Below are positions 12,903 through 29,493 of a stretch of DNA of 64,000 nucleotides, one piece after another; the first letter of the stretch is position 1, and each line of letters starts with the position of its first letter. This DNA is from Candidatus Doudnabacteria bacterium. GTDB lineage: Bacteria > Patescibacteriota > Doudnabacteria > UBA920. Location: positions 11,330 through 75,329 of the forward strand of contig JARLHZ010000022.1 of the NCBI GenBank assembly GCA_031291995.1. The letters run 5' to 3'. The translations under genes and the position numbers were made by a program. The notes below the pieces were generated by a model. That model saw only the letters and a program-made list of their open reading frames with translations, made no database searches and was not told the DNA's origin.

Positions 12903-13925
12903 ATGTTTATGATTACACCACAAAAGACCGCGCTAATTACTGGCATCACCGGACAGGACGGCTCCTATTTGGCCGAATTTTTGTTGGCCAAGGGCTACTC
13001 GGTCCACGGGATTATGCGCCGGGCATCAACATTCAATACCGGGAGAATTGAACAAATTTATCAGGACCCGCATATGTCTCATCGCCGTTTATTTTTGCAT
13101 TACGGCGATTTATCCGACGCGTCAAATTTAAACCAACTTATAAAAACCATAAAGCCCATTGAAATTTATAACCTGGGGGCGCAAAGCCATGTCAAGGTCA
13201 GCTTTGAAATACCTGAGTTTACGTCCAATGTGGATGCCTTGGGGACTTTGAGGCTTTTGGACGCGGTGCGAGACAGTGGAGTCAAAACAAAAATTTATCA
13301 GGCCGGAAGCAGCGAAATGTTCGGGGAGGCGCTGGAAAAGCCGCAGACCGAGAAAACTCCTTTTAACCCAGTTAGCCCTTACGCGGCGGCCAAAGTTTTT
13401 GCCCATCAAATGTGCAAAATTTATCGGGACAGCTACGGGATGTTTATTTGCAACGGCATATTGTTTAATCACGAAAGCGAGCGACGGGGGAAAACTTTTG
13501 TCACGCGAAAAATTACCGCGGGGATAGCCGCGATTTTAGCCGGTAAACAGGACAAAATTTTTTTGGGGAATTTGGACGCCAAACGGGATTGGGGATATGC
13601 TCCCGAGTATGTTAAAGCCATGTGGCTGATGTTACAAAAAAGCAAACCGGACGATTATGTAATCGCCACGGGGGAAACCCACAGCATAAGGGAATTTTTG
13701 GATGTGGCTTTTGGCCTGGTGGGCAAAAAAAACTGGAAGCCATTTGTTAGTATTGACCCGGCGTATTACCGTCCGAGCGAAGTTGACTATTTGCTGGGTA
13801 ATGCAGGCAAGGCCAAAAAACAGCTCGGCTGGAGGCCAAAGGTCAAATTTAAGGAACTGGTCCGGATAATGATGGAAGCCGATTTACGGGATGCGGGCTT
13901 AAATCCGGCACAGTATTTAATATGA
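12903..13925 (+). CDS. gmd: GDP-mannose 4,6-dehydratase
   Basis: 340 aa. '[46 protein letters not shown]' is the canonical Gmd N-terminus. The SDR catalytic region and the C-terminal region are conserved. Confidence 0.85.
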
Positions 13926-14701
13926 AGCTGTTAACGTTGAATGTTTGGGGCGCAACGCGGGGCCAGGTGCTTTTTGATTATATCAGGGAGGAAGCCGAGG
14001 ATACCGATATTTTTTGTTTCCAGGAAATATTTTCCGCTTTGCCGGGCGCCCCTGAAATCAGCTCGGGCGGCAGGATGTTTTTATTTCAGGAGTTGTCCCG
14101 GATGTTGCCGGAATTTGCCGGATTTTACGACCCCCGCAGCAGCGAAGCGGATTTTAACGGCCCAATCGCGCAGCCAATCAGCCATGGGACAGCGATGTTT
14201 GTGCGCAAAAATTTGGAAATTTTAAATTATAGCGCGGAAATTATTGAGCAAACGCATAACGCTAATGATGCCGCGGAAGGCTGGACCAAAGCGCAAGTCT
14301 TAAAATTGGAACACTTGGGCGGGGCTTTTTTTGTTATAAATTTTCACGGCGTGGCACAGCCGGGCAACAAGCTGGATACTCCCCAAAGGCTGGCGCACGC
14401 GAAAAGGCTGAGGCTGATTTGGGACAGTTTGGATGGCGGGAAAATTTTGTGCGGGGACTTTAATATGTATCCGGAAATTGAGAGCATTAAACTTTTGGAG
14501 GAGCGGAGCCGAAACCTAATAAAGGAATTTAATGTTCAGAACACCCGTAATAATTTGTCCTGGGCCAAATATCCGGGCGGCAGGCAAACCTTCGCCGATT
14601 TCACTTTTGTCAGTTCGGAAATAAAAGTTAAAAATTTTGAGGTTCCGTATAATGAAGTTTCCGACCATTTGCCCATGATTTTGGAGTTTGATTTCCACTG
14701 A
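13922..14701 (+). CDS. Endonuclease/exonuclease/phosphatase (EEP) family protein
   Basis: 259 aa. It carries the 'LLTLNVWG' N-terminal EEP motif and a C-terminal 'SDHLPM' His motif. It is translationally coupled to gmd (ATGA overlap). Confidence 0.6.
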
Positions 14702-14774
14702 TTACCAATAAACACAAATACTACCGGTTATCATTTTACGCCCATTTGAAAATTTGTGATTTGTCGTGAAGTAT

Positions 14775-15833
14775 ATGAAAATTCTCTTTTGCGGACTAAA
14801 GTATGAATATGGCAAGCCCTCGGCCGGTTTGTCTTTTGAATATCAAAATTTTTATCAGGTTTTAAATTCCATGCCGGGCATAGACTGCTCTCTGTTTGCC
14901 GTGGATGAAAAAATGTTGGAAGGCGGGCGGGAAGCAATGAACGCGCTGCTGATTAAAGAGGTTGAACTTACTAGTCCCGACTTATTGTTTTGCTTTCTTT
15001 TTACCGATGAAATCAAACAGAAAACTATCGAGCATATAACTAATCGTACCAAAACCAAGACTTTTAACTGGTTTGCGGACGACCATTGGCGACTGCCCAT
15101 TTATTCGCGATATTGGGCGCCATTGTTTACCATGGTCGGAACCACCGACTCCCGGGCACCGGCAAGGTACGCCGCATATGGCATAAAAAATGTGGTTAAA
15201 ACGCAATGGGCGGCCAATGTATCATTGTTCCGTCATGTCGGGGAATTGGAAAATCGGGGAATTGGAAGTTGCGATATTACATTTGTGGGAAAAAATTATG
15301 GGAAACGGGGAAAATATATTTCGGGGCTTAAATCGACCGGCCTTCCGGCCCGAGGTTTTGGCAAAGGCTGGGATGGCGGAATTGTCAGCCAACAAACTAT
15401 GTTGGAAATTTTTTCCCAGTCCAAAATCAACCTGAATTTTACCGAGAGTTATTTTACCTGGACCAACCAGTTGGCAAAGTTGCTTTTTAAAAAAAATCGC
15501 GGACGCTGGGCGTTAAGCTTCCATCCGCTTGACCAATTGCGTTCCTTGGCTGGCGCCAGGCGCCGGCAAATAAAAGGCCGCACCTTTGAAATTCCGGCCT
15601 GTGGCGGCTTTTTATTGAGCGGCGATGCGGACGACATCGGCAATTACTATGTGGACGGTAAAGAGGCAGTTATTTTTAAAAACGAGGCGGAGTTATTTGA
15701 AAAATGCCGTTATTACCTGTCTCATGATGCGGAACGCCAAGCTATCGCCCGAGCCGGACATGAGCGCACTTTGAGGGATAATACTTACGAAAAAAGATTT
15801 ACGGAAATTTTTAGGGCTTTGGGCTTAATGTGA
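14775..15833 (+). CDS. CgeB-like glycosyltransferase (DUF3880 + Glyco_trans_1_2)
   Basis: The ORF track starts at a GTG (14766). The first ATG is at 14775. The C-terminal 'CGGFLLSGDADDIGNYYVDGKEAVIFKNEAELFEKCRYYLSHDAERQAIARAG' is typical of the CgeB/GT1-like family. Confidence 0.5.
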   Translation: MKILFCGLKYEYGKPSAGLSFEYQNFYQVLNSMPGIDCSLFAVDEKMLEGGREAMNALLIKEVELTSPDLLFCFLFTDEIKQKTIEHITNRTKTKTFNWFADDHWRLPIYSRYWAPLFTMVGTTDSRAPARYAAYGIKNVVKTQWAANVSLFRHVGELENRGIGSCDITFVGKNYGKRGKYISGLKSTGLPARGFGKGWDGGIVSQQTMLEIFSQSKINLNFTESYFTWTNQLAKLLFKKNRGRWALSFHPLDQLRSLAGARRRQIKGRTFEIPACGGFLLSGDADDIGNYYVDGKEAVIFKNEAELFEKCRYYLSHDAERQAIARAGHERTLRDNTYEKRFTEIFRALGLM

Positions 15834-15846: not shown

Positions 15847-16788
15847 ATGGATTTAAAACGAGCAAAAATTTTATTGACCGGCGGCCACGGATTTTTGGGA
15901 GAAAAGGTCTACAGCGAGCTTTTAAAAGCGGGCGTTTTGGCTGGCAATGTAAGCCGACCCCGGAGTAAAGAGCTTGATTTTAGGCTGGCCTCAGCTTGCG
16001 ATAAAGCCGTTAGTGGGCGGGATTTGGTTATTCATTTGGCGGCCAGCGTCGGCGGCATCGGGTTTAACCAAAATCATCCGGGTCAATTATTTTATGATAA
16101 TGCCATAATGGGCATTAATTTAATCGAGGCTTCGCGCAAAGCCGGGGTTAAAAAGTTTGTACAAGTGGGGACTGTATGTGCTTACCCAAAAGTTCCGGAG
16201 CATATTCCGTTTCGTGAAGACGATTTATGGAAAGGTTATCCTGAAGAAACCAATGCCCCGTACGGTTTAGCCAAACTGATGCTTTTGGAAATGCTTCAGG
16301 CTTATCGGCGCGAATATGGCTTTAATGGAATTTATTTATTACCGGTAAATTTATACGGCCCCGGTGATAATTTTAAGCCGGAATCGTCCCATGTTATTCC
16401 GGCTTTGATAAAAAAATTTGTCGAGGCCGCCAAAAATCATAATTCGGAAGTTGTGGTTTGGGGTTCAGGTAAAGCGTCGCGTGAATTTTTATATGTTGAC
16501 GATGCCGCACGGGCCATTGTTTTAGCTGCGCGAAAATACGACAAGCCCTACCCTGTCAACATCGGATCCAGCAATGAATTAAAAATCAAGGAGCTTGTAG
16601 CGCTTATCGCAAAAATCACCGGGTTTAAAGGCGAGATTGTTTGGGACGCAGCCAAGCCCGATGGCCAACCCCGCCGTAAGCTCGACGTAAGTCGGGCCAA
16701 AAAGGAGTTTGATTTTATATCTAAAGTTGAGTTTAAATATGGTTTGGGGAAAACAATTGCATGGTATAAGCAAAATTACCATAAATAA
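15847..16788 (+). CDS. fcl: GDP-L-fucose synthase (GDP-4-keto-6-deoxy-D-mannose 3,5-epimerase/4-reductase). A ColC-type GDP-colitose synthase cannot be excluded.
   Basis: 313 aa SDR. 'KPDGQPRRKLDVSRAKK.FDF' compares with Fcl 'KPDGTPRKLLDVSRL'. The N-terminal NAD-binding motif is 'ILLTGGHGFLG'. It is adjacent to gmd. Confidence 0.7.
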   Translation: MDLKRAKILLTGGHGFLGEKVYSELLKAGVLAGNVSRPRSKELDFRLASACDKAVSGRDLVIHLAASVGGIGFNQNHPGQLFYDNAIMGINLIEASRKAGVKKFVQVGTVCAYPKVPEHIPFREDDLWKGYPEETNAPYGLAKLMLLEMLQAYRREYGFNGIYLLPVNLYGPGDNFKPESSHVIPALIKKFVEAAKNHNSEVVVWGSGKASREFLYVDDAARAIVLAARKYDKPYPVNIGSSNELKIKELVALIAKITGFKGEIVWDAAKPDGQPRRKLDVSRAKKEFDFISKVEFKYGLGKTIAWYKQNYHK

Positions 16789-16825: not shown

Positions 16826-16863
16826 AAATACACCTCTTGATACAATTGAGGTGTATTTTTTTT
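16826..16863 (+). terminator. Intrinsic terminator (AATACACCTC-loop-GAGGTGTATT + T8)
   Basis: 10-bp stem followed by TTTTTTTT after the fcl stop. Confidence 0.5.
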
Positions 16864-16871
16864 GTATAATT

Positions 16872-17117
16872 ATGCCTGAAATAAAACCAAATGAAGTTTA
16901 TACTACGGAAGAAAGTCGAGTATTATTGAAGATTAGCAATAGCACCATTAAACGGATGCTGAAGAGTGGATTATTGCGTGCCAATAAAGTAGGAAAACAA
17001 TACCGGATTTTGGGACACGAACTCCTGAGATTGGTTTCGCCGGAAATTGAAGAAAAAGCAGTTGATGTTTACCAAAAAATTAAGACAACCGCCAGAGAAA
17101 AAACCAAAAATTGGTAA
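16872..17117 (+). CDS. Helix-turn-helix DNA-binding protein (excisionase/MerR-like HTH_17)
   Basis: The first ATG is at 16872 (MPEIKPNEVYTTEESRVLLKISNSTIKRMLKSGLLRANKVGKQYRI). This is an excisionase-family HTH signature. The ORF-track start at 16851 overlaps the terminator. Confidence 0.45.
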   Translation: MPEIKPNEVYTTEESRVLLKISNSTIKRMLKSGLLRANKVGKQYRILGHELLRLVSPEIEEKAVDVYQKIKTTAREKTKNW

Positions 17118-17195: not shown

Positions 17196-18662
17196 ATGGA
17201 TCATAACGAACAGGCAGGTAAGAATTTTGCTTGGCTATCAGCCGCCCAGCTCGGAACCCGCATTCTTGGGGCGGCGTTTTTTATTTTTCTTTCGCGAAAA
17301 TTATTGGAAACCGGAGTCGGGGAGTACAGCTTTGTTTCTTCTTTTGTGCCCTTTTGGTTTATTTTAGTGGATTTCGGCGGCGCCGCGTATTTATTCCGCG
17401 AGTGGACCCATGGCAAAAAAACCGCGGCGGAAATTAAAGACGACTTCCACCAGTTGTTCACGCTCAGGTTGTTGATTGTACTGGCAATTGGTATACCGTT
17501 TTTAACGGTAAATTATTTTATAAACCGCCAGGTTTTGGGCTCCTTGGTTTTGTTTTACATTTCCATGTATTTAGCCATGTTCACAAACCTTTTGGATTTG
17601 TATTTTCAATCGCAAAACCAGTATCGGTATCTGGCAGTCAGACAAGTAATTGAGAAAACCACCGCCGTAGCGGCAGGCGTGGTTTTGCTCCTGATTCATC
17701 CTTCGGTCATAATGGTATTTGTTGCAATTTTAATAAGCCAATTGGCGAGCATTGCCTATTATTATTTGGCAACTTCGCCCTTTGGCATAAAATTAGTTTT
17801 GCGTAAAGAGTATGCCAAAAAGTTATTCATTAAAGGAATGCCTTTTTTATTTATTGGAATTTTTGCATCCCTTTATGCCAAAATTGATGTGACCATGCTC
17901 AGGTATATGGACAATTTTCAGACCGTCGGTTACTATGGCGCGGCCTACAAGTTTATGGATTTTACGGCGCTTTTTTCATCATTGTTCATTTCAGCCATTT
18001 TTCCCGTGCTATCGCCACTTTGGCAGGGCGGCAAGGATAGTCTGGCTTTTAACGATTTTTTTCAGAAATGTTTTCGGATTTTATTTTCCGCCGGCTTGCT
18101 GGTCGCCTTGTTTTTAATTGTGGCCGCGCCTTTGCTTATAAAAATATTTTTTCCCGCTTCTTTCGGCCCCTCCGTACTGGCCCTGAGGATTTTGGCAATT
18201 GGGCAGACGTTGGCGTTTTTAAGCGCGATTTTCAGTACGATGCTGATTATTGAAGGGCGCGAAAAAATCGGTTTGGCTATAATTATTTTTGGAGCGGTAT
18301 TCAATATTGTTCTCAATTTTATTTTAATTCCCCGCTTTTCCCTGTATGGCTCGGCGTGGGCTACCGTCATTGCCGAAATGGGAAATCTGTATCTCCTTCA
18401 GCATTTTGTCTCATGGAAAAAACCGGTCAACTTGCTGTTTAAGATTGTCAGCGTCGCTGGCGTAAACACCGTAATTTTTGTGTTTTTAAAGTTTACCGGA
18501 CTGACAAACAGCCTGCTGGCCGGGACCGTTATTCTATTGACGAACGCCGTAATCTTATTTACAGTTAAACTATTGGAAAAACAGGATGTCGCTCTCTTTG
18601 TTAACCCGTTTTTAGGCAAAGTTAAAACTTTATTTGGCCCTTTAATAAGTAACATTTTTTAA
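17196..18662 (+). CDS. wzx: Oligosaccharide/polysaccharide flippase (Wzx, MOP superfamily)
   Basis: 488 aa with about 12-14 TM helices, typical PF01943/PF13440 topology. It sits within the glycan locus. Confidence 0.7.
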   Translation: MDHNEQAGKNFAWLSAAQLGTRILGAAFFIFLSRKLLETGVGEYSFVSSFVPFWFILVDFGGAAYLFREWTHGKKTAAEIKDDFHQLFTLRLLIVLAIGIPFLTVNYFINRQVLGSLVLFYISMYLAMFTNLLDLYFQSQNQYRYLAVRQVIEKTTAVAAGVVLLLIHPSVIMVFVAILISQLASIAYYYLATSPFGIKLVLRKEYAKKLFIKGMPFLFIGIFASLYAKIDVTMLRYMDNFQTVGYYGAAYKFMDFTALFSSLFISAIFPVLSPLWQGGKDSLAFNDFFQKCFRILFSAGLLVALFLIVAAPLLIKIFFPASFGPSVLALRILAIGQTLAFLSAIFSTMLIIEGREKIGLAIIIFGAVFNIVLNFILIPRFSLYGSAWATVIAEMGNLYLLQHFVSWKKPVNLLFKIVSVAGVNTVIFVFLKFTGLTNSLLAGTVILLTNAVILFTVKLLEKQDVALFVNPFLGKVKTLFGPLISNIF

Positions 18663-18663
18663 T

Positions 18664-19476
18664 ATGAAAGTCGTCATTTTGTGCGGCGGGGAAGGTACCC
18701 GCATGAAGGAAGAAACCGAATTTAAACCCAAGCCGCTTGTCTTAGTCGGTGGCAAGCCGATTTTGTGGCATATTATGAAAATGTATGCCCATTATGGTTA
18801 TAATGAGTTTATTTTGACCCTGGGTTATAAAGGCGAAATGATAAAGGATTATTTTTTGAACCAGAATCGATATCTTAACGATTTTACCTTGGACACAAAA
18901 TCAGGCAAAGTCGATTATCATAACAACGAGTGCGATGATTTTCAGATCACCTTCGTTGAAACCGGTCTAAAGAGTTTGACCGGAGAACGGGTCAGGCGCG
19001 CTAAAAAATTTATCGAAGGGGAGGATTTTATGGTCACATACGGCGACGGCCTGGCCAATATTGATATTGCCAAGTTGGCGGAGTTTCATAAATCGCAGGG
19101 GACATTAGGGACAATCAGCGGTGTCCATCCCATTACCAGATTCGGCGTGCTGTCCATAAACGAGGACAACAAGAAAGTGGAAAAATTCCGACAGTACGGG
19201 GTCATTGACGAAGATATGAGCCCCAAGCAGATACACGAAGCCCGTAAAAGTTATATGAATGATTTTATTAACGGCGGCTTTATGGTGTTTAAAAACAGTG
19301 TCCTTAATTACGTCCACGAAAACAGCATGATTGAGGAGGCTTTTCCTCTTTTGGCCAAAGAAGGCAAATTGTCAGTCTACGAGCATACCGGTTTATGGAA
19401 AGCCATGGACACTTACAAGGACGTGGAGGAAATGAATATACTGTGGCAAAAAGATCCGTTTTGGAAAGTCTGGTAA
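18664..19476 (+). CDS. rfbF: Glucose-1-phosphate cytidylyltransferase
   Basis: 270 aa, alignable end to end with Salmonella RfbF. '[41 protein letters not shown]' matches '[41 protein letters not shown]'. The C-terminal 'DPFWKVW' matches 'APWKTWE'. Confidence 0.85.
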   Translation: [270 protein letters not shown]

Positions 19477-19553
19477 GCCGCGGATTGGACGCGGATAGCT
19501 GCGCGGATTAAGCGCGGAATCTGAATTCGATTATAACTGCGGGCTTGGCATAA

Positions 19554-20540
19554 ATGAAAAACTTAAATTTTATGAGCGAGTCATGGTCGGGAAAAAACGT
19601 GCTGGTGACCGGCGGTACCGGTTTGGTCGGGTCGCATTTGACGGAAAGGCTTTTGGAGCTCGGAGCTAAGGTTTTTGTATTGGATATTGTTTTGGAAGCG
19701 AATTCTTATTTTGCTTCCAAAAAGCTGGCTGATAAAGCCGGACTTTTTATGGTTGATTTGCGGAATTTTGAGGGAGTGAAAAAAGTCATTGCGGAAAATC
19801 AGATCAACTACATTTTCCATTTGGGCGCGCAGGCGCTGGTGCCGGTGGCATTAGAACAGCCGATGGAAACTCTGGACGCCAATGTTATGGGTACGGTTCA
19901 TGTGCTGGAAGCGGCGCGGCAGCTGGGAACGGTGAGCGGCATAGTGGTTGCTTCATCGGACAAGGCTTACGGCAAGGATTGCATTAACGTCAAAGAAGAC
20001 CAAAAACTGGCCGGCGACCACCCTTATGATGTGTCCAAGACCTGTGCCGATTTAATTTCTACAACCTATTTTAAAACGTATAATTTGCCGGTGGCCGTAG
20101 CCCGCTTTGGCAATATTTTCGGGCCGGGCGATTTACATTTTGACCGGATTGTGCCGGGAGTTATGGAATCGCTGATAAAAAATCAGGAATTGCAAATCCG
20201 CAGCAATGGGAAATTTCGTCGGGATTATTTATACGTTAAGGACGTGGCGGAAGGCTATATCAAGATGGCTCAAAAAGCCGAAGAAATTAAAGGCGAGGCC
20301 TTTAATTTTAGCACCAACTGGAATTTTTCCGTCACTGAACTGGTGGAAAAAATCGGCCAGATTCTGGGACGGCAGGTTCATTACAAAATCTTGGACACCC
20401 AAAAAAACGAAATTCCCGAACAGAGTCTGAACTGGGATAAGGCCAAAAAAGTTTTGGGCTGGGAACCGGAATGTTCTTTTGAGAAGGGAATAGAGGAAAC
20501 CGTTAACTGGTATAATAACTATTTTTCCGGAAAGGATTAG
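19554..20540 (+). CDS. rfbG: CDP-glucose 4,6-dehydratase-like SDR
   Basis: 328 aa. 'PMETLDANVMGTVHVLEAARQLG...ASSDKAYG' compares with RfbG 'PIETYSTNVMGTVHLLE...TSDKCY'. The motif is 'VLVTGGTGLVGSHL'. Confidence 0.65.
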   Translation: MKNLNFMSESWSGKNVLVTGGTGLVGSHLTERLLELGAKVFVLDIVLEANSYFASKKLADKAGLFMVDLRNFEGVKKVIAENQINYIFHLGAQALVPVALEQPMETLDANVMGTVHVLEAARQLGTVSGIVVASSDKAYGKDCINVKEDQKLAGDHPYDVSKTCADLISTTYFKTYNLPVAVARFGNIFGPGDLHFDRIVPGVMESLIKNQELQIRSNGKFRRDYLYVKDVAEGYIKMAQKAEEIKGEAFNFSTNWNFSVTELVEKIGQILGRQVHYKILDTQKNEIPEQSLNWDKAKKVLGWEPECSFEKGIEETVNWYNNYFSGKD

Positions 20541-20543
20541 TCT

Positions 20544-21422: not shown

Positions 21423-21434
21423 TTAATACTATAT

Positions 21435-22523
21435 ATGCAAAGAGATATATTTGAAGATCTGTTCGTTCTGGAAATGGCCAGTAATCACTTGGGAAGCCTG
21501 GACAGGGCGCTAAAGATTGTGGAGCAGCACTCTAAAATAGTTAGGTTCAACAACGTACGCGCGGCTATAAAGCTGCAATTCCGCGACGTTGATAATTTTG
21601 TACACAAGAATTTTACTGACCGCAAGGAAATTCGCTACATCCGCAGGACCCTGGAAACAAAAATGTCCAAAGAAGATTACGGGGTATTGGTGGAAGCCAT
21701 TAAAAAGAGCGGTTGCATCCCCATGGCAACGCCTTTTGACGAGAAGTCTGTGGATTTGTGCGTGGAATTTAACATGCCGATTATTAAGGTTGCCAGCGCG
21801 GACAGTAATGACTGGATGCTCTTGGAAAAAATCGCTTCGACCAAAAAACCTGTTATTGTATCCGTAGGCGGATTGTCCCTAAAAGATATGGATGATATGG
21901 TGACTTTTTTTGAGCACCGCAATACGACCCTGGCCATTAACCACTGTGTTGCCGCATATCCCCACGAAGACTCGGAATGCGAGTTGGACCAGATAGATTT
22001 CCTCAAAAACCGCTTCCCTGACCACACTATCGGCCTATCCACACACGAATATCACGATTGGTATTCTTCGCTGCTTATCGCTTATGGCAAAGGCGCCCGC
22101 ACTTTTGAGCGGCACATAGATATTGACGAAGGCGGGGCGGAAGTGGCAAAATATTCTTCCCTTCCGGAACAAATAGATGTTTGGTTTAGAGCTTACAACA
22201 AGGCCAGGGAAATGTGCGGAACTGCCAAAACTGAACGCAGGGTGCCGTTGGAACGGGAGTCAAAATATTTGGACGGTTATATTCGAGGGGTCTATGCCAA
22301 GCATGACCTTAAGAAAGGGGATATTTTGATGGAAGAGGATATTTATATGGCCATTCCCCTCCAGAAAGGCCAGATTTCCAGCCGGGAATTAATGCTCGGA
22401 AAGTATGGGCATAAAATGATTGCCGACTGTAAAGCCGACGAGCCAATTAAAATTGATATAATAGACACTCCTTACGCCCATAATGAAGAATTGAAAAAAA
22501 CAATTTATGGCAGGGGTCTCTAA
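21435..22523 (+). CDS. NeuB-family (N-acylneuraminate/nonulosonate synthase-like) protein with C-terminal SAF domain
   Basis: 362 aa. 'MATPFDEKSVDLCVEFNMPIIKVASADSNDWMLLEKIASTKKPVIVSVGGLS...INHCVAAYPHEDSECELDQIDFL...IGLSTHE' follows the NeuB TIM-barrel pattern. The C-terminal SAF is 'LKKGDILMEEDIYMAIP'. Confidence 0.7.
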   Translation: MQRDIFEDLFVLEMASNHLGSLDRALKIVEQHSKIVRFNNVRAAIKLQFRDVDNFVHKNFTDRKEIRYIRRTLETKMSKEDYGVLVEAIKKSGCIPMATPFDEKSVDLCVEFNMPIIKVASADSNDWMLLEKIASTKKPVIVSVGGLSLKDMDDMVTFFEHRNTTLAINHCVAAYPHEDSECELDQIDFLKNRFPDHTIGLSTHEYHDWYSSLLIAYGKGARTFERHIDIDEGGAEVAKYSSLPEQIDVWFRAYNKAREMCGTAKTERRVPLERESKYLDGYIRGVYAKHDLKKGDILMEEDIYMAIPLQKGQISSRELMLGKYGHKMIADCKADEPIKIDIIDTPYAHNEELKKTIYGRGL

Positions 22524-22529
22524 AAACAG

Positions 22530-24338
22530 ATGATTAAAGTTTCCGATTATATTTTCCATCGATTGCATAAAGTCCACGGTGTGGATCAGGTGTTTATGAT
22601 TACAGGAGGTGGCGCCATGCATTTAAACGATGCCATTGGCCGTTGTGAAGGCTTAAAATTTATCTGCAACCACCATGAACAAGCCTGCGCCATTGCCGCG
22701 GAGGGTTATGCGCGCACCACAGGAAAGTTGGCGGCGGTAAATGTCACCAGCGGTCCCGGAGGTACGAACACCTTGACGGGCGTGCTTGGGCAATGGACCG
22801 ATTCCGTACCTGTAATTTATATTTCCGGCCAGGTCAAGTTTGAAACTACAATTTCGTCCTGTCCCGATTTGGGTTTGCGCCAGCTTGGCGATCAGGAATT
22901 TAATATAATTGACGTTGTCCGGCCATTCACTAAATTCGCCGCAATGGTCACGGATAAAAACGATATTAAAAAATTTCTTGACCAGGCTGTCCATTTAGCC
23001 ACGCATGGACGTCCCGGGCCGGTATGGCTGGATATCCCCATGGACGTGCAGGGGGCTCTGGTGGATGAAAAAAAATTAGGTGAATTCGCTATGACGGAAA
23101 GTTCCGCGGACGCAGTTCCACTTGAGTCGGAAGTTGGCAAAGTCATCGAATTGCTTGGGCAAGTCAAGCGGCCGGTGCTGGTTTTGGGGCGGGGCGTGCG
23201 AATTGCCGGAGCGCGGGATTTAGCCTTGGCATTGGCCAAGAGGATAGGCCTGCCTTTGCTCGGTACTTTTAACGCTTATGATTTGATTCCGGCCAGCCAT
23301 CCCAATTATGCGGGAAGGATTGGGACTTTAGGCGATCGCGCCGGAAATTTCGCCCTGCAAAATTCCGACTTGTATATTTCCGTGGGCAGTCGTAATAATT
23401 TGCGGCAGGTCAGCTACAACTGGCAGTCATACGCACGGGTCGCAAAAAAAATTGTCGTGGATATAGACCCTGCCGAACTTGCTAAACCTACCTTGATTCC
23501 CGATATCCCAATTTTGGCCGATGCTAAAGTTTTTTTGGAATTGCTCGGCGGGAAATTAAAATCCGCTACCTTGCCGGATTGGTCGGAGTGGAATGCCTGG
23601 TGTCAAAAACGCAGGAAAAGTTATCCCGTGGTCTTGCCCGAATATAGTGATGATAGCATGGGGGTCCATCCTTACTATTTTATGCAACGCCTGACCCAGG
23701 CCTTGGAGCCGGGAGCGGTGGCGGTGGCCGGGGATGGGACTGCCTGCGTCGCTTTGTTCCAGGCCGGGGAAGTCAAGGAAGGCCAGACGATTTTTTGGAA
23801 TTCCGGCTGCGCGGCTATGGGTTATGATTTACCGGCTGCCATCGGCGCGTGTATTGCAAATAAAAAGAGCACCGTATGCATAGCGGGGGACGGCAGCCTG
23901 CAGTTAAATATCCAGGAACTGGAAACAGTGGCTTTTAATAAACTTCCGTTAAAAATATTTTATTTGAATAACGGCGGCTACCAGTCCATTAAGCAGACCC
24001 AGGCCAATTATTTTCCGGATAATTTTATAGGTTGCAGCCCGGATAGCGGGATTGGCTTTCCCGATATTGTCAAAGTGGCTCGGGCTTACGGTCTAAAAAC
24101 CGAAATAATCGATAATCATAAAAATTTGGATAAAATTGTCCGGGCGGTACTAGAGGCTGAGGTTCCGGTGGTTTGTGAGGTAAGGTTAAGGGCTGATTAT
24201 GTTTTTTCCCCTAAATTATCTTCAAAAAAATTATCTGACGGAAGGATGATTTCCAAGCCCTTGGAAGATATGTATCCGTTTTTAAGCCGCGAAGAATTTA
24301 AATCTAATATGATAATTGAGCCTTTAGCGGAGGAATAA
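22530..24338 (+). CDS. Thiamine-diphosphate-dependent acetolactate-synthase-like enzyme (YerE-like candidate sugar C-branching enzyme)
   Basis: 602 aa with the three-domain ALS/IlvB architecture. The TPP motif is 'IAGDGSLQLNIQELET...NNGGYQSI'. The N-terminal 'ITGGGAMHLNDAI' carries the PYR-domain glutamate region. It sits inside a CDP-deoxysugar gene set. Confidence 0.75.
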   Translation: MIKVSDYIFHRLHKVHGVDQVFMITGGGAMHLNDAIGRCEGLKFICNHHEQACAIAAEGYARTTGKLAAVNVTSGPGGTNTLTGVLGQWTDSVPVIYISGQVKFETTISSCPDLGLRQLGDQEFNIIDVVRPFTKFAAMVTDKNDIKKFLDQAVHLATHGRPGPVWLDIPMDVQGALVDEKKLGEFAMTESSADAVPLESEVGKVIELLGQVKRPVLVLGRGVRIAGARDLALALAKRIGLPLLGTFNAYDLIPASHPNYAGRIGTLGDRAGNFALQNSDLYISVGSRNNLRQVSYNWQSYARVAKKIVVDIDPAELAKPTLIPDIPILADAKVFLELLGGKLKSATLPDWSEWNAWCQKRRKSYPVVLPEYSDDSMGVHPYYFMQRLTQALEPGAVAVAGDGTACVALFQAGEVKEGQTIFWNSGCAAMGYDLPAAIGACIANKKSTVCIAGDGSLQLNIQELETVAFNKLPLKIFYLNNGGYQSIKQTQANYFPDNFIGCSPDSGIGFPDIVKVARAYGLKTEIIDNHKNLDKIVRAVLEAEVPVVCEVRLRADYVFSPKLSSKKLSDGRMISKPLEDMYPFLSREEFKSNMIIEPLAEE

Positions 24339-24340
24339 CC

Positions 24341-25015
24341 ATGAAAACTTTATTTATTACCGGAGGCCATGGGGGCATTGGACAGGCTATTGTTCAGGAA
24401 TTTCAGGCGCGGAACTATAAAATTATCTCGCCAAGCAGTCGGGAGTTGGATTTATCCCAGGTCGAGTCTATTAAATCCTATTTTTCAGCTTCGGTTCCGG
24501 ATATTGATGTGTTAGTTCATAGCGCGGGCATAAATTTTCCCAAACCCCTGGAGGAAATTAATGGTGAGGAATTTGAGAAGACTCTTGCCGTAAATGCAAC
24601 CAGTTTGTTTTATTTGGCGCAGATTTTTTTGCCCCGCCTTAAAGCAAAAAATGGCGGACATATTTTGGCCGTAAATTCAATCTGGGGAATTATTTCTAAA
24701 CCAGGGCGGCTGTCTTACGCCATGTCAAAACAGGCCTTGAACGGTTTGGTAAAAACATTGGCCTTGGAGCTGGCTCCCCATAATATTAAAGTCAACTCCG
24801 TCGCTCCCGGCTTTGTCGATACAAAACTTACTAGGCAAAACAATACCGAGGAGCAGATTAAATCGATTGTAAAACAGGTACCACTTGGCCGCTTGGCTAA
24901 GCCCGAAGAGATCGCAAGGGCCGTTTATTATTTATGCTCAGATGATAACAATTATATCACTGGACAAAATTTGGTAATTGACGGCGGTTTTACCGCTGGG
25001 ATTTTTGGAAATTAG
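24341..25015 (+). CDS. Short-chain dehydrogenase/reductase (SDR, classical)
   Basis: 224 aa. The motifs are 'LFITGGHGGIGQAI', 'YAMSKQALNGLVKTLALELA' (YxxxK) and a C-terminal 'VIDGGF'. A strong GGAGG Shine-Dalgarno sequence lies upstream. Confidence 0.75.
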   Translation: MKTLFITGGHGGIGQAIVQEFQARNYKIISPSSRELDLSQVESIKSYFSASVPDIDVLVHSAGINFPKPLEEINGEEFEKTLAVNATSLFYLAQIFLPRLKAKNGGHILAVNSIWGIISKPGRLSYAMSKQALNGLVKTLALELAPHNIKVNSVAPGFVDTKLTRQNNTEEQIKSIVKQVPLGRLAKPEEIARAVYYLCSDDNNYITGQNLVIDGGFTAGIFGN

Positions 25016-25019
25016 TTTT

Positions 25020-26159
25020 ATGGGACAATTTGATTTTAAAATCCAGGATGAAAGTTTTACCCTGCCGGATAAATATTCGGAGTTGTCTGATTTTAAAGTG
25101 GATTCAGTTCCGCGCCCTTATAAAGTCGCCTGGTGGGACGAGGATCCGGCGCAAATCATTAACAGGGAAATGGCTGACGCAGCCGGGAATGTTTTGGTCA
25201 TTGACGAAAAATTGCGGCAATTATTTTCCGCCGCATTTGGTTTTTCACCGGAGAGAATTTTTTCTTTGGTTGCGGACGAGGAGCATAAAATTTTAGATAC
25301 AGCCGCCGCTTTGTTTGATTTTTTGCAGGCTCGGGGCTTTTCTAAAAGCGATAGGCTGATAGTGGTTGGAGGCGGAGTAACACAGGACGTTGGCGGGTTT
25401 GTCGGTGGCATTTATAAGCGCGGCCTAAACTGGGTATTTTACCCGACAACTCTTTTATCAATGTGCGACAGTTGTATAGGCGCCAAAGCGGGATTAAATT
25501 TTAAGGGCGTCAAAAATCAGCTGGCAATTTTTTCCGCTCCAAGGGAAGTGGTAGTAAACCCTCAATTCCTCAAGACTTTAAATGAGCGGGAATTCCATTC
25601 CGGTTTGGGGGAAATCCTAAAGTTGCATGTTACCGGAGGCGGGGGATTGCTGGAAAACTACCAAAAAATAGTGGCTGACGGCATAGTTAAGGATTTTACC
25701 GGATATAAGTCCCTCATCTTCGGATCGCTTTTTGTAAAAAAAGCCGTCATAGAGAAAGATGAATTTGAACAGGGTTTAAGGAAAAGTCTAAACTACGGCC
25801 ACACCTTTGGCCACGCTATTGAGACGCTGACCGGTTATAACATTCCTCATGGCCAAGCAGTCGCGGCCGGCATGATTATTGTTAACCAACTCGCACATGA
25901 GCGCGGGTTGCTGCGTGCGGATAAAAATCTTTTGATGCAAAATTTATGCCTTAAGCTTCTGGATGCGCCAACCAGGCGCAAAATTAAATGTTTATCCGGA
26001 GATAATTTTCTTGAATTATTGAGGCAGGACAAGAAAGCTTCGTCCGGCCGGATTAACCTGGTGTTTTTAAAAGACTTAGGAGAAACAATTTTTGTAAATT
26101 ATGAAATTAATAAAGACCTGTCCAAATCGGTGGATAAGGTAATTACGAGTATCTTTTGA
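25020..26159 (+). CDS. 3-dehydroquinate synthase-like (sugar phosphate cyclase superfamily) enzyme
   Basis: Start set at the ATG at 25020 (MGQFDF...) to avoid overlap with the SDR. 'VVGGGVTQDVGGFVGGIYKRGLNWVFYPTTLLSMCDSCIGAKAGLNF' compares with AroB '[46 protein letters not shown]'. The motif 'EFHSGLGEILKLHV' compares with 'ELASGLAEVIKYGI'. Confidence 0.7.
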   Translation: MGQFDFKIQDESFTLPDKYSELSDFKVDSVPRPYKVAWWDEDPAQIINREMADAAGNVLVIDEKLRQLFSAAFGFSPERIFSLVADEEHKILDTAAALFDFLQARGFSKSDRLIVVGGGVTQDVGGFVGGIYKRGLNWVFYPTTLLSMCDSCIGAKAGLNFKGVKNQLAIFSAPREVVVNPQFLKTLNEREFHSGLGEILKLHVTGGGGLLENYQKIVADGIVKDFTGYKSLIFGSLFVKKAVIEKDEFEQGLRKSLNYGHTFGHAIETLTGYNIPHGQAVAAGMIIVNQLAHERGLLRADKNLLMQNLCLKLLDAPTRRKIKCLSGDNFLELLRQDKKASSGRINLVFLKDLGETIFVNYEINKDLSKSVDKVITSIF

Positions 26160-26248
26160 CGATTAATGGTGTCTGCGACAGGCGCGATTTTGCTTAAACC
26201 CGTTTTTTTACTATAATTATGTAGGTGTTTATAATTATTTACGAAACA

Positions 26249-27472
26249 ATGCCGACAAAAATACAGTCGAATATGAGAGTCCCTTACGGCCTGTCCGTAC
26301 ATGGGCAGGAAGAAATAGACGCTGTTGTTGAAGTTTTAAAAGGCAATACCGCCCTGGGCGACAAGGTGAAGGAGTTTGAAAATAAGGTTGCCAAAATGTT
26401 CGGGAAAAAGTATGGGGTAATGGTTAACTCCGGCTCCAGTGCCAACCTTTTGGCTCTTGAACTTCTTAATTTACCCCGCGGCAGCGAAGTCATAACTCCC
26501 GTTTTAACTTTTTCCACCACTGTCGCGCCGATTGTCCAAAAGGGCTTGGTTCCGGTGTATGTCGATATCAACCCGCAAACATATATTGCGAACCTTAACC
26601 AGGTCGAAAAAGCCATCGGCAAAAAAACCAAAGCTTTGATGATCCCGTCGTTAATGGGGAACATTCCAAACTTAAAGCGACTGCAGGCAATAGCGAAAAA
26701 ATACAAACTTTGGCTGATTGAAGATTCCTGCGATACCTTGGGCGGCAGTTATAACGGGCGGCCGAGCGGGACATATTCGGATATTTCCACAACAAGTTTT
26801 TACGGATCTCATGTTATTAACGGCGCGGGAGGGGGAGGCATGATTTGCGTTAATAATCCGGAGTGGGTGGATCGTTTGGTGGTACTTCGGGGTTGGGGCA
26901 GGCAGTCTTCTTTGTTTGGCGAAAAATCCAATTCCGAATTGCTCGCCAATCGTTTTCAAGGAAAAATTGACGGTACCCCTTACGATAATAAATTTATTTT
27001 CAGTGAAATCGGCTATAATTTTTTACCTCTGGAAATTTCGGCCGCCTTCGCGCTGGTCCAGCTAAAGAAGTATCCAAAATTTTTGGCTCTCCGCCAAAAA
27101 TATTTTGCGGAAATGTACAAATTTATAGAAAAAAAACATCAAAAATATTTTCTCCTGCCCAAACAAACGCCCAATACCAAAACCGCCTGGCTGGCTTTCC
27201 CCCTTATTATCAAACCCGGCGCGCCGTTTACCCGCCTGGACATAGTGACGTTTTTGGAAAATAATAATGTCCAGACCAGACCGGTGTTTACCGGAAGCAT
27301 TTTAAAGCAGCCCGGCTTTAAAAATATCAGGCATCGCAATGCCGTCAATAATTTTCCCCATTCGGAAGACGTCATGAAGAACGCTTTTGTCGTAGCCTGC
27401 CATCATGGCTTGTCGGATCGGCAAATTAAATATTTGCAGGAATGCTTTAATGAATTTTTAGCAGCTTTTTAA
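26249..27472 (+). CDS. RfbH/ColD-type PLP/PMP-dependent sugar 3-dehydrase (DegT family), lacking the E1 [2Fe-2S] cysteine motif
   Basis: The first ATG is at 26249 (the ORF track starts at a GTG, 26225). 'NSGSSANLLALELL', 'WLIEDSCDTLG', 'TTSFYGSHVING' (His where aminotransferases carry the Schiff-base Lys) and 'QTRPVFTGSILKQPGF' parallel RfbH/DdhC. The region matching the RfbH Cys cluster (CYCAPGCDNTCGKRF) reads 'WGRQSSLFGEKSNSELLANRF'. Confidence 0.7.
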   Translation: MPTKIQSNMRVPYGLSVHGQEEIDAVVEVLKGNTALGDKVKEFENKVAKMFGKKYGVMVNSGSSANLLALELLNLPRGSEVITPVLTFSTTVAPIVQKGLVPVYVDINPQTYIANLNQVEKAIGKKTKALMIPSLMGNIPNLKRLQAIAKKYKLWLIEDSCDTLGGSYNGRPSGTYSDISTTSFYGSHVINGAGGGGMICVNNPEWVDRLVVLRGWGRQSSLFGEKSNSELLANRFQGKIDGTPYDNKFIFSEIGYNFLPLEISAAFALVQLKKYPKFLALRQKYFAEMYKFIEKKHQKYFLLPKQTPNTKTAWLAFPLIIKPGAPFTRLDIVTFLENNNVQTRPVFTGSILKQPGFKNIRHRNAVNNFPHSEDVMKNAFVVACHHGLSDRQIKYLQECFNEFLAAF

Positions 27473-27473: not shown

Positions 27474-28424
27474 ATGACAAATCCGAGTACTCCTCCCATA
27501 TTAAGTATTTGCATACCGACTTTTTCCCGCTCTCATTTTCTGCGGGAATGCCTGGACAGTATTACCGCGCAGTTTTCGGACGAGGCTATCCGTTCGGTTG
27601 TGGAAATCGCGGTTTCCGACAACGCGAGTACGGACGATACCGAAGCGGTGGTAAAGAGTTACCAAAAAAAATATCCCAACATCCGTTACAGCCGTAATGC
27701 CGAAAATTTGGGTTTTGACCGCAACGTGGCTGCGGCGCTTGCGCTTGGTGGTGGCAGGTTTTTATGGCTGATGAGCGATGATGAAATGCTGGCGCCGGAG
27801 GCTTTAAAATTTATTTTGCCTTTGCTGCTGGGGCATCCGCAAGTGGCTTATTTTTGCGTCAACCACGGCGGCCTGCCGCGGGACACGGAATTTGAGGTCT
27901 TTTCGGATGGCAGCGCCTGGCTGGATAGTTTGGGTTTGACCGGCGGTTTAATTTCGCAGAATATTTACAACCGGGATTTTTTGCCGGCAGATATCTCCCG
28001 GTATTACGGCAATTACTGGATACATTATTCGCTGGCGTTTGAAGTTATGGCCGCGCATCCGGCCATGCTGGTAAAAAAATTATTTTTGGATCCGCCACAA
28101 GAGCGTGAGTGCGGCTGGGCGGAAGGCGGGCACGCCCTGACTGTTTATAACAGTTTAAATGCCATCTTAAAAGGTTTGCCGGCTTTAGGTTACCGGCCAT
28201 CGGCCGTGCGCCGCCGGCTGCGGGATATGGCCAAAGGGCTGGCGAGGCAGGTTGCTTCCTCTAAAATACACAATTTAAAAATTTCCGCGGCTGTTTTTAA
28301 AAAACTTTGCCGCGATTATGGGGCATATCCCTGGTGGCTGCTGCCGGCGCTGGCGGTTTATTTATGCCCCAACGCCTGGCTGCGGCCGTTGCGGGGTGCC
28401 GTAAAAGCCGCCGGGGTAATTTGA
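27474..28424 (+). CDS. Glycosyltransferase family 2
   Basis: 316 aa. 'LSICIPTFSRSHFLRECLDSITAQ...SDNASTDDT' is the GT-A DXD-type N-terminus. Confidence 0.7.
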   Translation: MTNPSTPPILSICIPTFSRSHFLRECLDSITAQFSDEAIRSVVEIAVSDNASTDDTEAVVKSYQKKYPNIRYSRNAENLGFDRNVAAALALGGGRFLWLMSDDEMLAPEALKFILPLLLGHPQVAYFCVNHGGLPRDTEFEVFSDGSAWLDSLGLTGGLISQNIYNRDFLPADISRYYGNYWIHYSLAFEVMAAHPAMLVKKLFLDPPQERECGWAEGGHALTVYNSLNAILKGLPALGYRPSAVRRRLRDMAKGLARQVASSKIHNLKISAAVFKKLCRDYGAYPWWLLPALAVYLCPNAWLRPLRGAVKAAGVI

Positions 28425-28443
28425 TCATTATACAGTTTGCTAT

Positions 28444-29493
28444 ATGGTGCCAAAAAAATTAGTAGTCTTGGATTTTGACGAGCCGCGCCTGCTGGAGAAT
28501 AAGATTTTCAATCCGGCGGAAGCCATAAAAGTCAGCCATACTATTTTGCCGACTTGTTATTTGCAGCGCCAAGCCGCGTTGCTGGGCATTGCTATGGTGA
28601 CCCCCGACGTCTACCTGCGCGGCCGTCCGCTTCCGGCTTTAATGCTGTCCCACCTGCATACCTCCTGGACCAAACGGCTGATTGGCGCCGGCGCCCGCCC
28701 GATAATTTTGACCTGCCAGGAGTCGCCGTTCATTGCCACGCGGTTTTACGCTAACTTAAAAAATTACAGCGGACTATATAAACATTCCTTTGTGTTCGCG
28801 GGAATGAGAAAAAGGTTGTCGTCGAAAACCCAGTATCGCCAGATGTTTTTCCCCCAGGCCTATAACCCGGCGGTTATTGCGGAAGTGCCGTTCGGACAAA
28901 GAAAATTTTTGACAATGATCAGCGGCAATAAGCGGATGGGCAATTGGAAAAAAACTTTGCTGATAAAATTCATGTATGGCTGGGGTATAAAAGAAATTTA
29001 CTCATTGCGCCAGCGCGTAATTAATTTGATGGCCACCCGCGGGGGTTTTGACCTGTATGGCGTTGGCTGGGACAGGGGCGGCTTAAATCCGGGCGACACG
29101 TCCAATATAAAAAAAGTTTATCGGGGTAAAGTGGACGACAAAACCGAAACACTGCGGCAATACAAGTTCGCTTTTTGTTTTGAAAACAGCGTTTTTCCCG
29201 GCTACGTCACGGAAAAAATTTTTGACGTGATGTTCGCCGGCTGCGTGCCGGTGTATAACGGCGCGCCGGACATTAAAAATTTTGTGCCGGCCGGCGCCTT
29301 TATTGACGTCCGCGATTTTTCCGGCCTGGACCGGCTGGCGGAGTTTTTGGAAAATATGGACGAATCCGTTTATAATAGATATATGGCAAACATAAAAAAA
29401 TATTTGGCTTCGCCGGAGTTTTTAAAATTTTCCCAGGAAAATTTTGCTGAAAATATTTTGGGGATTTTGGAACAGGAGTTCAATAATGAGTAA
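28444..29493 (+). CDS. GT10-like alpha-1,3-fucosyltransferase family glycosyltransferase
   Basis: 349 aa. 'YKFAFCFENSVFPGYVTEKIFDVMFAGCVPVY' matches the FucT signature (FxxxFENS...GYxTEK). The locus also carries a GDP-fucose supply (gmd and fcl). Confidence 0.6.
   Translation: MVPKKLVVLDFDEPRLLENKIFNPAEAIKVSHTILPTCYLQRQAALLGIAMVTPDVYLRGRPLPALMLSHLHTSWTKRLIGAGARPIILTCQESPFIATRFYANLKNYSGLYKHSFVFAGMRKRLSSKTQYRQMFFPQAYNPAVIAEVPFGQRKFLTMISGNKRMGNWKKTLLIKFMYGWGIKEIYSLRQRVINLMATRGGFDLYGVGWDRGGLNPGDTSNIKKVYRGKVDDKTETLRQYKFAFCFENSVFPGYVTEKIFDVMFAGCVPVYNGAPDIKNFVPAGAFIDVRDFSGLDRLAEFLENMDESVYNRYMANIKKYLASPEFLKFSQENFAENILGILEQEFNNE

Follow-up and report, generated by a model that had tools for sequence, protein, structure and literature searches.

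Comparison with Known Systems

The described enzymes closest to the family 10 glycosyltransferase (GT10) considered here are the Helicobacter pylori α1,3/4-fucosyltransferase (FucT; PDB 2NZW, 2NZX, and 2NZY) and human FUT9 (8D0O). In colanic-acid and O-antigen loci a Gmd plus Fcl (WcaG) module provides GDP-L-fucose, and the closest clusters for branched sugars are those of yersiniose A (DdhA-D, YerE, and YerF of Yersinia pseudotuberculosis), erwiniose (ErwE/F/I/J), and caryophyllose (MMAR_2331-2333 of Mycobacterium marinum), which have been brought together with gastriose in a unifying scheme for acyl-branched sugars (PMC9306805). Relatives of all of these are found in one Wzx/Wzy-type polysaccharide assembly locus, which spans roughly 28 kb (about 9.4-37.6 kb) of a 64,000-nucleotide stretch of DNA (the window; contig JARLHZ010000022.1, positions 11,330 to 75,329) from a metagenome-assembled genome (MAG) of Candidatus Doudnabacteria, a member of the candidate phyla radiation (CPR; Patescibacteria). 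An NCBI protein identical to the GT10 bears this organism name and is already annotated "glycosyltransferase family 10." The locus combines these family memberships with conserved catalytic residues, a predicted GT-B fold, and conserved synteny, and we consider it likely that it assembles a glycan by means of a GDP-fucose route, a GT10 fucosyltransferase, a branched-sugar route, and methylation.

The GT10 shares with H. pylori FucT and FUT9 the PF00852 domain, the FEN...Y-TEK motif, the GT-B fold, and genomic linkage to GDP-fucose synthesis. It is about 15-17% identical to them over the structure, with an acceptor domain lacking detectable sequence similarity; unlike them, it has no C-terminal heptad repeats or membrane anchor and is encoded in a CPR Wzx/Wzy locus. 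An N-acetyllactosamine-type host-mimicry acceptor is unlikely, and the analogy with host glycan mimicry drawn in the initial annotation found no support here. The supply module resembles its colanic-acid-type counterpart in an equivalog-level Gmd and in the catalytic Cys/His/Tyr/Lys of Fcl, but its Fcl is divergent, two genes separate gmd from fcl, and manB/manC and the NUDIX gene Gmm are absent from the locus.

With the yersiniose-type clusters the locus shares a cytidylyltransferase, a 4,6-dehydratase, a pyridoxamine phosphate (PMP)-dependent 3-dehydratase, an acetolactate synthase (ALS)-like carboligase, and short-chain dehydrogenases/reductases (SDRs). It differs in having no E3 (DdhD), in the loss of the Fe-S cysteines from the 3-dehydratase, in carrying a NeuB-like phosphoenolpyruvate (PEP)-dependent synthase and an AroB-related enzyme instead of a pyruvate aldolase, and in its CPR host. 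The ColD/ColC system for GDP-colitose (Escherichia coli O55; 2GMS and 3GR9) is matched in the His that replaces Lys, the missing Fe-S cluster, and the Fcl homolog; the dehydratase of the window, however, is nearer to E1 and is syntenic with CDP-glucose genes, not with gmd. GT10, Gmd/Fcl, and YerE-type clusters each belong to known kinds, and the fucose/GT10 part of the interval is routine annotation; the branched-sugar set may be its more novel part. The literature searched gave nothing relevant on fucosylation in CPR/Patescibacteria or on a bacterial GT10 with colitose. Three features appear undescribed there: a conserved locus type found across the CPR, an E1-like dehydratase that lacks the cysteines, and the NeuB/AroB-like variant of the route.

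The GT10 Protein

Comparisons covered 79 GT10-homolog loci from GTDB species representatives, several metagenomic loci, and 80 RfbF-anchored loci (cited by L or P number; L167 is the L008 locus extended upstream). Scoring against PF00852, proposed as a check in the initial annotation, placed the protein far above the cut-off (Table 1); the match covers only residues 227-321, in the C-terminal domain, and the domain is present in all of at least 120 GT10 homologs among the matches listed. The α1,3-FucT donor motif that had been claimed (F-x-x-x-F-E-N-x(5)-Y-x-T-E-K) is present save for its first residue: the protein reads YKFAFCFENSVFPGYVTEKIF, with Y in place of F, and retains the FEN...YVTEK nucleotide-donor motif with its Glu and Lys. 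In alignment with 2NZW (FENSVFPGYVTEK against FENTQGYGYVTEK), the equivalents of N240, Y246, E249, and K250, which contact GDP-fucose in H. pylori FucT, are kept.

PDB searches with the sequence and with a 50-sequence family profile returned only GT10 fucosyltransferases (H. pylori FucT, FUT9, mango FUT13, and Arabidopsis FUT11). The AlphaFold (AF2) model has a GT-B fold (predicted local distance difference test 95.4; predicted template modeling [TM] score 0.91), and Foldseek ranks 1-8 for it are H. pylori FucT (2NZX/2NZW/2NZY) and FUT9 (E down to 5e-12; TM about 0.5-0.58). Among 80 homologs, at least 90% keep E93, R189, E247, N248, E257, and K258. R189 may be the diphosphate-binding Arg expected of the family; E93 lies in a Q-E-S-P motif and may be the catalytic base, a role that we take E95 to have in H. 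pylori FucT. In FUT9 the catalytic-base Glu is Glu137 (PMC12717137). Two CPR homologs encoded directly downstream of gmd-fcl (L043 and L049) lack the T-E-K of the donor motif in the alignment (...GGYV-QYMKD...), which could be an alignment shift or a truly altered active site.

Probable GDP-Fucose Supply

By its score above the equivalog cut-off (Table 1), the gene at 12903-13925 encodes an unambiguous Gmd; the protein is 64% identical to Gmd of L167. It lies 1.9 kb upstream of the fcl-like gene, with two other genes between. For the Fcl-like protein, GDP-L-fucose synthase (NF047922) is the best NCBIfam model and by far the best-matching family, and E. coli Fcl is the best solved relative (206 bits). 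The initial annotation's call of fcl thus stands for the family and the catalytic residues but not at equivalog level (267 against 500 bits). Alignment with 1BSV (GTVCAYPK/GSSCIYPK, NAPYGLAK/NEPYAIAK, and ESSHVIPA/SNSHVIPA) shows equivalents of Ser/Thr107, Cys109, Tyr136, Lys140, and His179 all kept; in E. coli Fcl, Ser/Thr107, Tyr136, and Lys140 serve reduction, and Cys109 and His179 epimerization.

Two types of Fcl occur in GT10 loci: a canonical type (481 bits on the Fcl model for the L008 protein; many CPR genomes carry relatives of it under the annotation GDP-L-fucose synthase) and a divergent type B (267-293 bits), to which the window protein belongs. Type-B homologs (54-58% identity) are encoded directly downstream of a true gmd in L033 and L078, which supports a role for type B on GDP-4-keto-6-deoxymannose; the predicted product of the window enzyme is GDP-L-fucose.

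Conserved Gene Order in Related Loci

In a neighbor-joining tree the window GT10 falls in a clade of homologs 38-68% identical to it (at least 45% except in L017), almost wholly from CPR bacteria (Wolfebacteria, Paceibacterota, Saccharibacteria, Harrisonbacteria, and unclassified Patescibacteria). A GT2-GT10-GT2 block is conserved in about 20 loci of this window clade; it adjoins a DegT-type 3-dehydratase and a thiamine diphosphate (ThDP) enzyme and usually also RfbF/RfbG homologs. Wherever the upstream region is readable, one or both GDP-fucose genes belong to the cluster: Fcl and/or Gmd are retained in five window-clade loci, the opposite of the loss of fcl from transferase-keeping relatives that the initial annotation had named as grounds for doubt. 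Extension of L008 on the upstream side brought gmd-fcl into view, with about 9.7 kb separating gmd from the downstream GT10; gmd had lain outside the original locus because the true start of GT10 is before the point where the 10-kb flank began. Gene order there (Wzy_C, GT4 on the opposite strand, gmd, Fcl, helix-turn-helix [HTH], wzx, rfbF, rfbG, split transketolase, SDR, DegT, GT2, and GT10) is the architecture of the window. A canonical Fcl stands at the very edge of the flank examined in L017 and L169, in the same position. In P0097, a trio made up of ManC and two SDRs of 316 and 358 aa, which Pfam classes as Fcl- and Gmd-like, is encoded 4.3-7.8 kb upstream of GT10. Farther out in the family, gmd, fcl, and GT10 directly follow one another in that order in L040, L043, and L049, and almost do so in L034; in L078 and L079 the order is GT10-gmd-fcl, with the three genes again adjacent.

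The co-occurrence of gmd, the fcl-like gene, and GT10 is not chance, because the three lie in one locus and on one strand, junctions are short or overlapping, and the architecture recurs in other genomes; a single divergently oriented GT4 gene departs from the common strand. Since Gmd and/or Fcl are co-clustered where the upstream region can be read, and distant GT10 genes adjoin gmd-fcl, a fucosylated glycan is the best reading, and the most economical one is that the GT10 is a fucosyltransferase supplied by gmd/fcl. The initial prediction of GDP-fucose supply and a GT10 leading to a fucosylated, probably O-methylated surface glycan held up in the computational tests.

Several observations pull the other way. 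The conserved neighbors of GT10 in the roughly 20 window-clade loci are two GT2 genes, not gmd/fcl, and the dehydratase/ThDP module is conserved by GT10 in at least 14 of the loci with enough flank. No gmd or fcl was found within 10 kb in L011-L015, L164, L166, and L170, although the same test would miss the gmd of the window, 14.5 kb from GT10. The N-terminal (acceptor) domain, aligned directly or through the family profile, gave no sequence match to any solved FucT, and E93 is put forward as the base from its conservation. The Fcl-like protein is 38% identical to canonical CPR Fcl and scores 267 bits against a cut-off of 500, so the stereochemistry of its product is uncertain; manC/manB, for GDP-mannose supply, were not found among the window open reading frames (ORFs) scanned; and the identities of donors and products are predictions.

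The same neighborhood allows the proposal that the window-clade GT10 transfers the acyl-branched 3,6-dideoxyhexose of the CDP pathway described below, the gmd/fcl product then going to a different transferase, such as the Glyco_trans_1_2 protein. In its favor, the GT2-GT10-GT2 genes lie directly or closely downstream of the 3-dehydratase and ThDP genes in the roughly 20 loci, most window-clade loci are without a true gmd within 10 kb, and the window has a second GT-B transferase gene in the gap that separates gmd from fcl. This proposal is nevertheless quite improbable. Every characterized or solved relative found is a GDP-fucose-dependent fucosyltransferase; the donor-side residues are unchanged relative to homologs encoded directly beside gmd-fcl, and no clade-specific switch in the donor half sets the window clade apart from the clades adjacent to gmd (80 homologs); and gmd and/or fcl are co-clustered where the upstream region is visible. 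The branched-sugar pathway, moreover, usually occurs without GT10 (in the RfbF-anchored metagenome scan only L148 carried one, among about a dozen rfbF-rfbG-rfbH-TPP loci, TPP denoting the thiamine diphosphate enzyme), and the flanking GT2 pair is equally conserved and could equally comprise the branched-sugar transferases. The absence of gmd within 10 kb in 15 window-clade loci was rejected as evidence against fucose, given the 14.5-kb spacing in the window itself; it is largely an artifact of flank length.

It is unlikely, too, that the window GT10 subclade as a whole (about 20 loci, mostly in Wolfe-, Pacei-, Sacchari-, Harrison-, and Doudnabacteria MAGs) was recruited to transfer the branched sugar or, in a milder version, that it fucosylates this sugar specifically. 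If true, the former would give the first GT10 enzyme with a non-fucose, probably CDP-linked donor; the latter would make fucosylation of the branched sugar the mark of a conserved CPR surface epitope. For a fucosyltransferase, the close genetic tie to the branched-sugar module may stem from conservation of the repeat-unit structure, for instance of the enzyme's acceptor.

A gene of the GT11 family (PF01531, α1,2-fucosyltransferases) stands beside GT10 in L001-L003, L006, L007, L165 (Wolfebacteria-type), and L169; such loci are predicted to make doubly fucosylated glycans, and the presence of this gene adds to the case for fucose. Three window-clade loci (L005, L008, and L010) come from contigs that were assigned in binning to Woesearchaeota, Gammaproteobacteria, and Methanoregula. 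Gene content on the L008 contig is CPR-like, with an Fcl 73-76% identical to Magasanikbacteria proteins, and these bin labels may reflect mis-binning rather than transfer.

A Predicted CDP-Linked Branched-Sugar Pathway

About 9 kb of the locus (18664-27472) holds a second pathway, CDP-linked and ThDP-dependent, that went unrecognized in the initial annotation: a complete-looking set for an acyl-branched 3,6-dideoxyhexose. Its predicted functions (genes for CDP-4-keto-3,6-dideoxyglucose, an ALS-like ThDP enzyme, SDR reductases, and a candidate α-keto-acid-forming enzyme) fit the unifying scheme for acyl-branched sugars, and by analogy with that scheme the ThDP enzyme would be a YerE/ErwE-like branching enzyme (PMC9306805). 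The ThDP gene adjoins the 3-dehydratase gene in at least 14 loci, and the extended SDR co-occurs with this pair in L008, L009, L011, L012, L015, L164, and L169. A TPP-FabG-AroB-like trio recurs in L031 and L149.

The NeuB-like protein has an SpsE-like protein as its best PDB match (3G8R, 206 bits), and genes for homologs 58-62% identical adjoin rfbF-rfbG-rfbH-TPP in L011, L140, L143, L159, L162, and L163; the best PDB matches of the AroB-related protein are 3-dehydroquinate synthases (156 bits). Encoded on either side of the ThDP enzyme, the two resemble 3-deoxy-D-arabino-heptulosonate 7-phosphate (DAHP) synthase and dehydroquinate synthase. They probably make the α-keto-acid donor and could supply a deoxygenated polyhydroxy α-keto acid for a long side chain; a route through a 3-deoxy-ulosonate phosphate that is later dephosphorylated or deoxygenated is speculative. 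In L164, the closest related locus, an HpcH/HpaI aldolase and a haloacid dehalogenase (HAD) phosphatase are encoded beside the ThDP enzyme. In L008 the ALS-like enzyme gives way to a transketolase/E1-type ThDP enzyme split into N and C halves (L167 14780-16524), which implies that alternative ThDP chemistries serve sugar branching within the same locus type.

The 3-dehydratase of this set could instead act as ColD, with Gmd and with the Fcl-like protein as ColC, to make GDP-L-colitose (3-deoxy-L-fucose), the GT10 then being a colitosyltransferase. Like ColD and E1, the dehydratase carries His where a Schiff-base Lys would bind pyridoxal phosphate (PLP) (SFYGSH; E1, SFYPAH). It lacks the CxC...C...C [2Fe-2S] cluster of E1: the segment is QSSLFGEKSNSELLANRF, and the E1 cysteine segment WGRDCYCAPGCDNTCKKRF reads WGRQSSLFGEKSNSELLANRF. 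No match to the E3 (DdhD)/ferredoxin-reductase family was found among the locus ORFs, so the enzyme would have to act reductase-free, as ColD does. The Fcl-like protein, for its part, is of a divergent subtype, and a ColD-like DegT directly follows type-B Fcl in L078 and is found alongside gmd, fcl, and GT10 in L034 and L040.

We give little credence to colitose, however, and the ColD/gmd partnership raised in the initial annotation did not hold up. The dehydratase scores 240.7 bits against the CDP-specific E1 (3BCX) and 176.6 bits against ColD, which makes E1 its closer relative, and its best NCBIfam model is RfbH. Alignment of DegT homologs separates three subtypes: E1-like with cysteines (e.g., L006-L008), ColD-like, and the cysteine-less subtype of the window, with the signature SFYGSH..GAGGGGM...WGRQSSLFGE. 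Cysteine-less genes (L011, L013, L014, and L017, 64-78% identity; L021, 54%) are always beside rfbF/rfbG with no gmd in view; ColD-like genes (L034, L040, and L078) are beside or within about 7 kb of gmd/fcl/GT10, and ColD is the best PDB match for those of L040 and L078. In the window the dehydratase gene adjoins the ThDP module, with gmd and fcl 9-12 kb away, and its diversion to colitose would deprive RfbF/RfbG and the YerE-like enzyme of the 3-deoxy-4-keto substrate that the known pathway calls for (PMC9306805). Because of its closeness to E1 and the constant association of its subtype with rfbF/rfbG, the dehydratase is best placed with RfbF, RfbG, and the ThDP enzyme, and an identity as ColD was rejected; the missing E3 gene suggests a ColD-like, reductase-independent mechanism acting on a CDP-sugar.

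Elsewhere, gmd, an Fcl-like gene, and a ColD-like DegT accompany a GT10 homolog (L034, L040, and L078), and L109 has such a gmd/ColD-like/Fcl-like set without GT10 in view. These four look like GDP-colitose loci, and some members of the GT10 family may be colitosyltransferases.

It is very improbable that the divergent Fcl-like protein makes another GDP-6-deoxy-L-hexose, altered at C-3, C-4, or C-5, which the GT10 would transfer as a fucose-like sugar: the type-B scores fall well below the 481 bits of canonical CPR Fcl, and L043 holds both types (type A beside gmd), hinting at non-redundant functions, but all E. coli Fcl epimerization and reduction residues are conserved, type B is the sole Fcl-like gene beside gmd in L033 and L078, and none of the known families with other products gave a better match.

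Proposed Biosynthetic Route and Target

For a fucosylated, branched-sugar glycan we infer the following donors, acceptors, and order of steps. The Bac_transf protein would start the unit on polyprenyl phosphate, and seven glycosyltransferases (GT4, GT1_2, three GT2, GT10, and GT4-like) would extend it at the cytoplasmic face. Gmd and the divergent Fcl-family epimerase/reductase would convert GDP-mannose to GDP-L-fucose, from which the GT10, as an inverting GT-B transferase, would add α-L-fucose to the growing unit. The RfbF-like and RfbG-like enzymes would form CDP-4-keto-6-deoxyglucose; the cysteine-less E1-like PMP enzyme would remove the 3-OH, probably in a ColD-like, reductase-independent manner; and the YerE/ErwE-like ThDP enzyme would place an acyl branch on C-4, to be reduced by the SDRs. 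The α-keto-acid donor of the branch would probably come from the NeuB-like and AroB-like enzymes, and the product would be a sugar of the yersiniose/erwiniose/caryophyllose class. Up to four methyltransferases may O-methylate the glycan, Wzx would flip the unit, and the Wzy_C/TPR protein would polymerize it or ligate it to an acceptor.

We know of no CPR bacterium that makes lipopolysaccharide, and for this reason the glycan is predicted to be a capsule or wall polymer or to be attached to protein. A type IV pilus cluster (53759-59035), about 16 kb downstream, encodes a PilB-like T2SSE ATPase, a PilC-like T2SSF protein, PilM, and two further ORFs; pilins are a possible glycosylation target, and nothing ties the cluster to the locus.

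CPR bacteria are ultra-small, mostly uncultured episymbionts, and to our knowledge almost nothing is known of their surface chemistry. The recurring CPR locus predicts a testable surface glycan with fucose, methylated sugars, and a rare branched 3,6-dideoxyhexose of the yersiniose/caryophyllose class; such a glycan could be a handle for studies of host attachment and a target for enrichment with lectins or antibodies. The locus could also yield new ThDP carboligases and an Fe-S-independent 3-dehydratase acting on CDP-sugars.

Gene Content of the Locus and Window

Genes of the locus are listed in Table 1; the gmd, fcl-like, GT10, DegT, and methyltransferase genes are all where the initial annotation had put them.

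Table 1. Predicted genes of the polysaccharide assembly locus, with coordinates in the window
Predicted product	Coordinates	Strand	Supporting match
Wzy_C (O-antigen polymerase/ligase/O-oligosaccharyltransferase family) membrane protein, C-terminal TPR	9411..11693	+	PF04932 78 bits; TPR_19/TPR_17
GT4 glycosyltransferase, divergently oriented	11709..12848	-	PF00534 136 bits
GDP-mannose 4,6-dehydratase Gmd	12903..13925	+	TIGR01472 522.5 bits (cut-off 415); PF16363 460 bits
Endonuclease/exonuclease/phosphatase (EEP)-fold protein	13922..14701	+	PF03372 51 bits
GT-B glycosyltransferase, Glyco_trans_1_2 type	14766..15833	+	PF13524 98.8 bits
Fcl-family GDP-4-keto-6-deoxymannose 3,5-epimerase/4-reductase, divergent type B	15847..16788	+	NF047922 267 bits (cut-off 500)
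Small HTH protein, between fcl and wzx	16851..17117 (probable start ATG 16872)	+	ORF similarity to L167 gene
Wzx-type flippase	17196..18662	+	PF01943 99 bits
Glucose-1-phosphate cytidylyltransferase-like (RfbF/DdhA-like)	18664..19476	+	TIGR02623 267.8 bits (cut-off 300)
CDP-glucose 4,6-dehydratase-like (RfbG/DdhB-like)	19554..20540	+	TIGR02622 218.5 bits (cut-off 278)
Extended SDR (RmlD/epimerase-like), candidate sugar/side-chain reductase	20544..21422	+	PF01370 84.6 bits
Divergent NeuB-family PEP-dependent synthase	21435..22523	+	PF03102 131.9 bits; PseI and NeuB equivalog models 127 and 117 bits
ThDP-dependent ALS-like carboligase, YerE/ErwE-like	22530..24338	+	All three TPP_enzyme domains; below every ALS equivalog cut-off
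Classical SDR, FabG-like, candidate YerF-like side-chain ketoreductase	24341..25015	+	PF13561 177 bits
AroB-related putative sugar-phosphate phospho-lyase	24978..26159	+	TIGR04425 309 bits (cut-off 400)
PMP/PLP-dependent NDP-4-keto-6-deoxyhexose 3-dehydratase (DegT), E1/RfbH lineage	26225..27472	+	RfbH NF011936 340 bits (cut-off 423)
GT2 glycosyltransferase GT2a	27474..28424	+	PF00535 79 bits
GT10-family glycosyltransferase, predicted α-L-fucosyltransferase	28444..29493	+	PF00852 73 bits (cut-off 23.9)
GT2 glycosyltransferase GT2b	29486..30412	+	PF00535 82 bits
Putative S-adenosylmethionine (SAM) methyltransferase, weak match	30421..31356	+	PF13489 (Methyltransf_23) 32.4 bits (cut-off 27)
GT4-like glycosyltransferase, weak match	31360..32385	+	PF00534 27 bits (cut-off 26.4)
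DUF268/Methyltransf_11 methyltransferase	32636..33367	+	PF03269 50.6 bits
FkbM-family methyltransferase	33675..34481	+	TIGR01444 77.7 bits (cut-off 37.7); PF05050 58 bits
GT2 glycosyltransferase GT2c	34513..35253	+	PF00535 102 bits
Initiating polyprenyl-phosphate sugar-phosphate transferase (Bac_transf)	35282..36628	+	PF02397 206 bits
Class I SAM methyltransferase, locus end	36741..37550	+	PF08241 (Methyltransf_11) 73 bits

Many of the remaining genes have counterparts in related loci. In L167 a homolog of the Wzy_C/TPR protein occupies the equivalent position, and the counterpart of the divergent GT4 is 37% identical, with the same position and orientation; the Wzx flippase is 45-50% identical to those of L006-L008. 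Homologs of the Glyco_trans_1_2 protein are encoded next to GT10 homologs in L023 and L046 and are also carried by L020 and L166. GT2a is kept directly upstream of GT10 in the window clade and GT2b directly downstream in related loci; in the window the ATG of GT2b overlaps the GT10 stop codon (ATGAGTAA; junction sequence read directly). Homologs of the GT4-like protein (25-32% identical) hold the equivalent position in related loci. A homolog of the EEP-fold protein was looked for in the related loci and none was found. The four methyltransferases on which the initial annotation based O-methylation are present, with starts at 30421, 32636, 33675, and 36741, the first only just above threshold; homologs of the DUF268 protein (39-45% identity) occur in L006-L008, L017, L021, and L169.

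The small HTH protein is highly similar to the product of an 80-aa HTH_17 (PF12728) gene at the equivalent position in L167. A gene of this kind (about 80 aa) lies directly upstream of wzx in those CPR loci where the position was read (the window; L167, 11128-11370; and Wolfebacteria loci such as L001, 7350-7595), and its product may serve as a regulator specific to the locus.

At 0.40-0.50, the GC content of the locus falls inside the range of the whole window, and horizontal transfer or compositional oddity was rejected on this ground. The only non-coding RNAs found in the window are two tRNAs, both distant from the locus. After the locus, the interval 39081-48108 carries mobile-element/defense-like genes: a PIF1-type helicase, RadC, a Phd/YefM antitoxin, an N6/N4 DNA methylase with an adjacent PD-(D/E)XK nuclease-like ORF, and XseA with an unusual N-terminal HRDC domain. 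Upstream of the locus lies an IS200-like transposase fragment (7997-8614).

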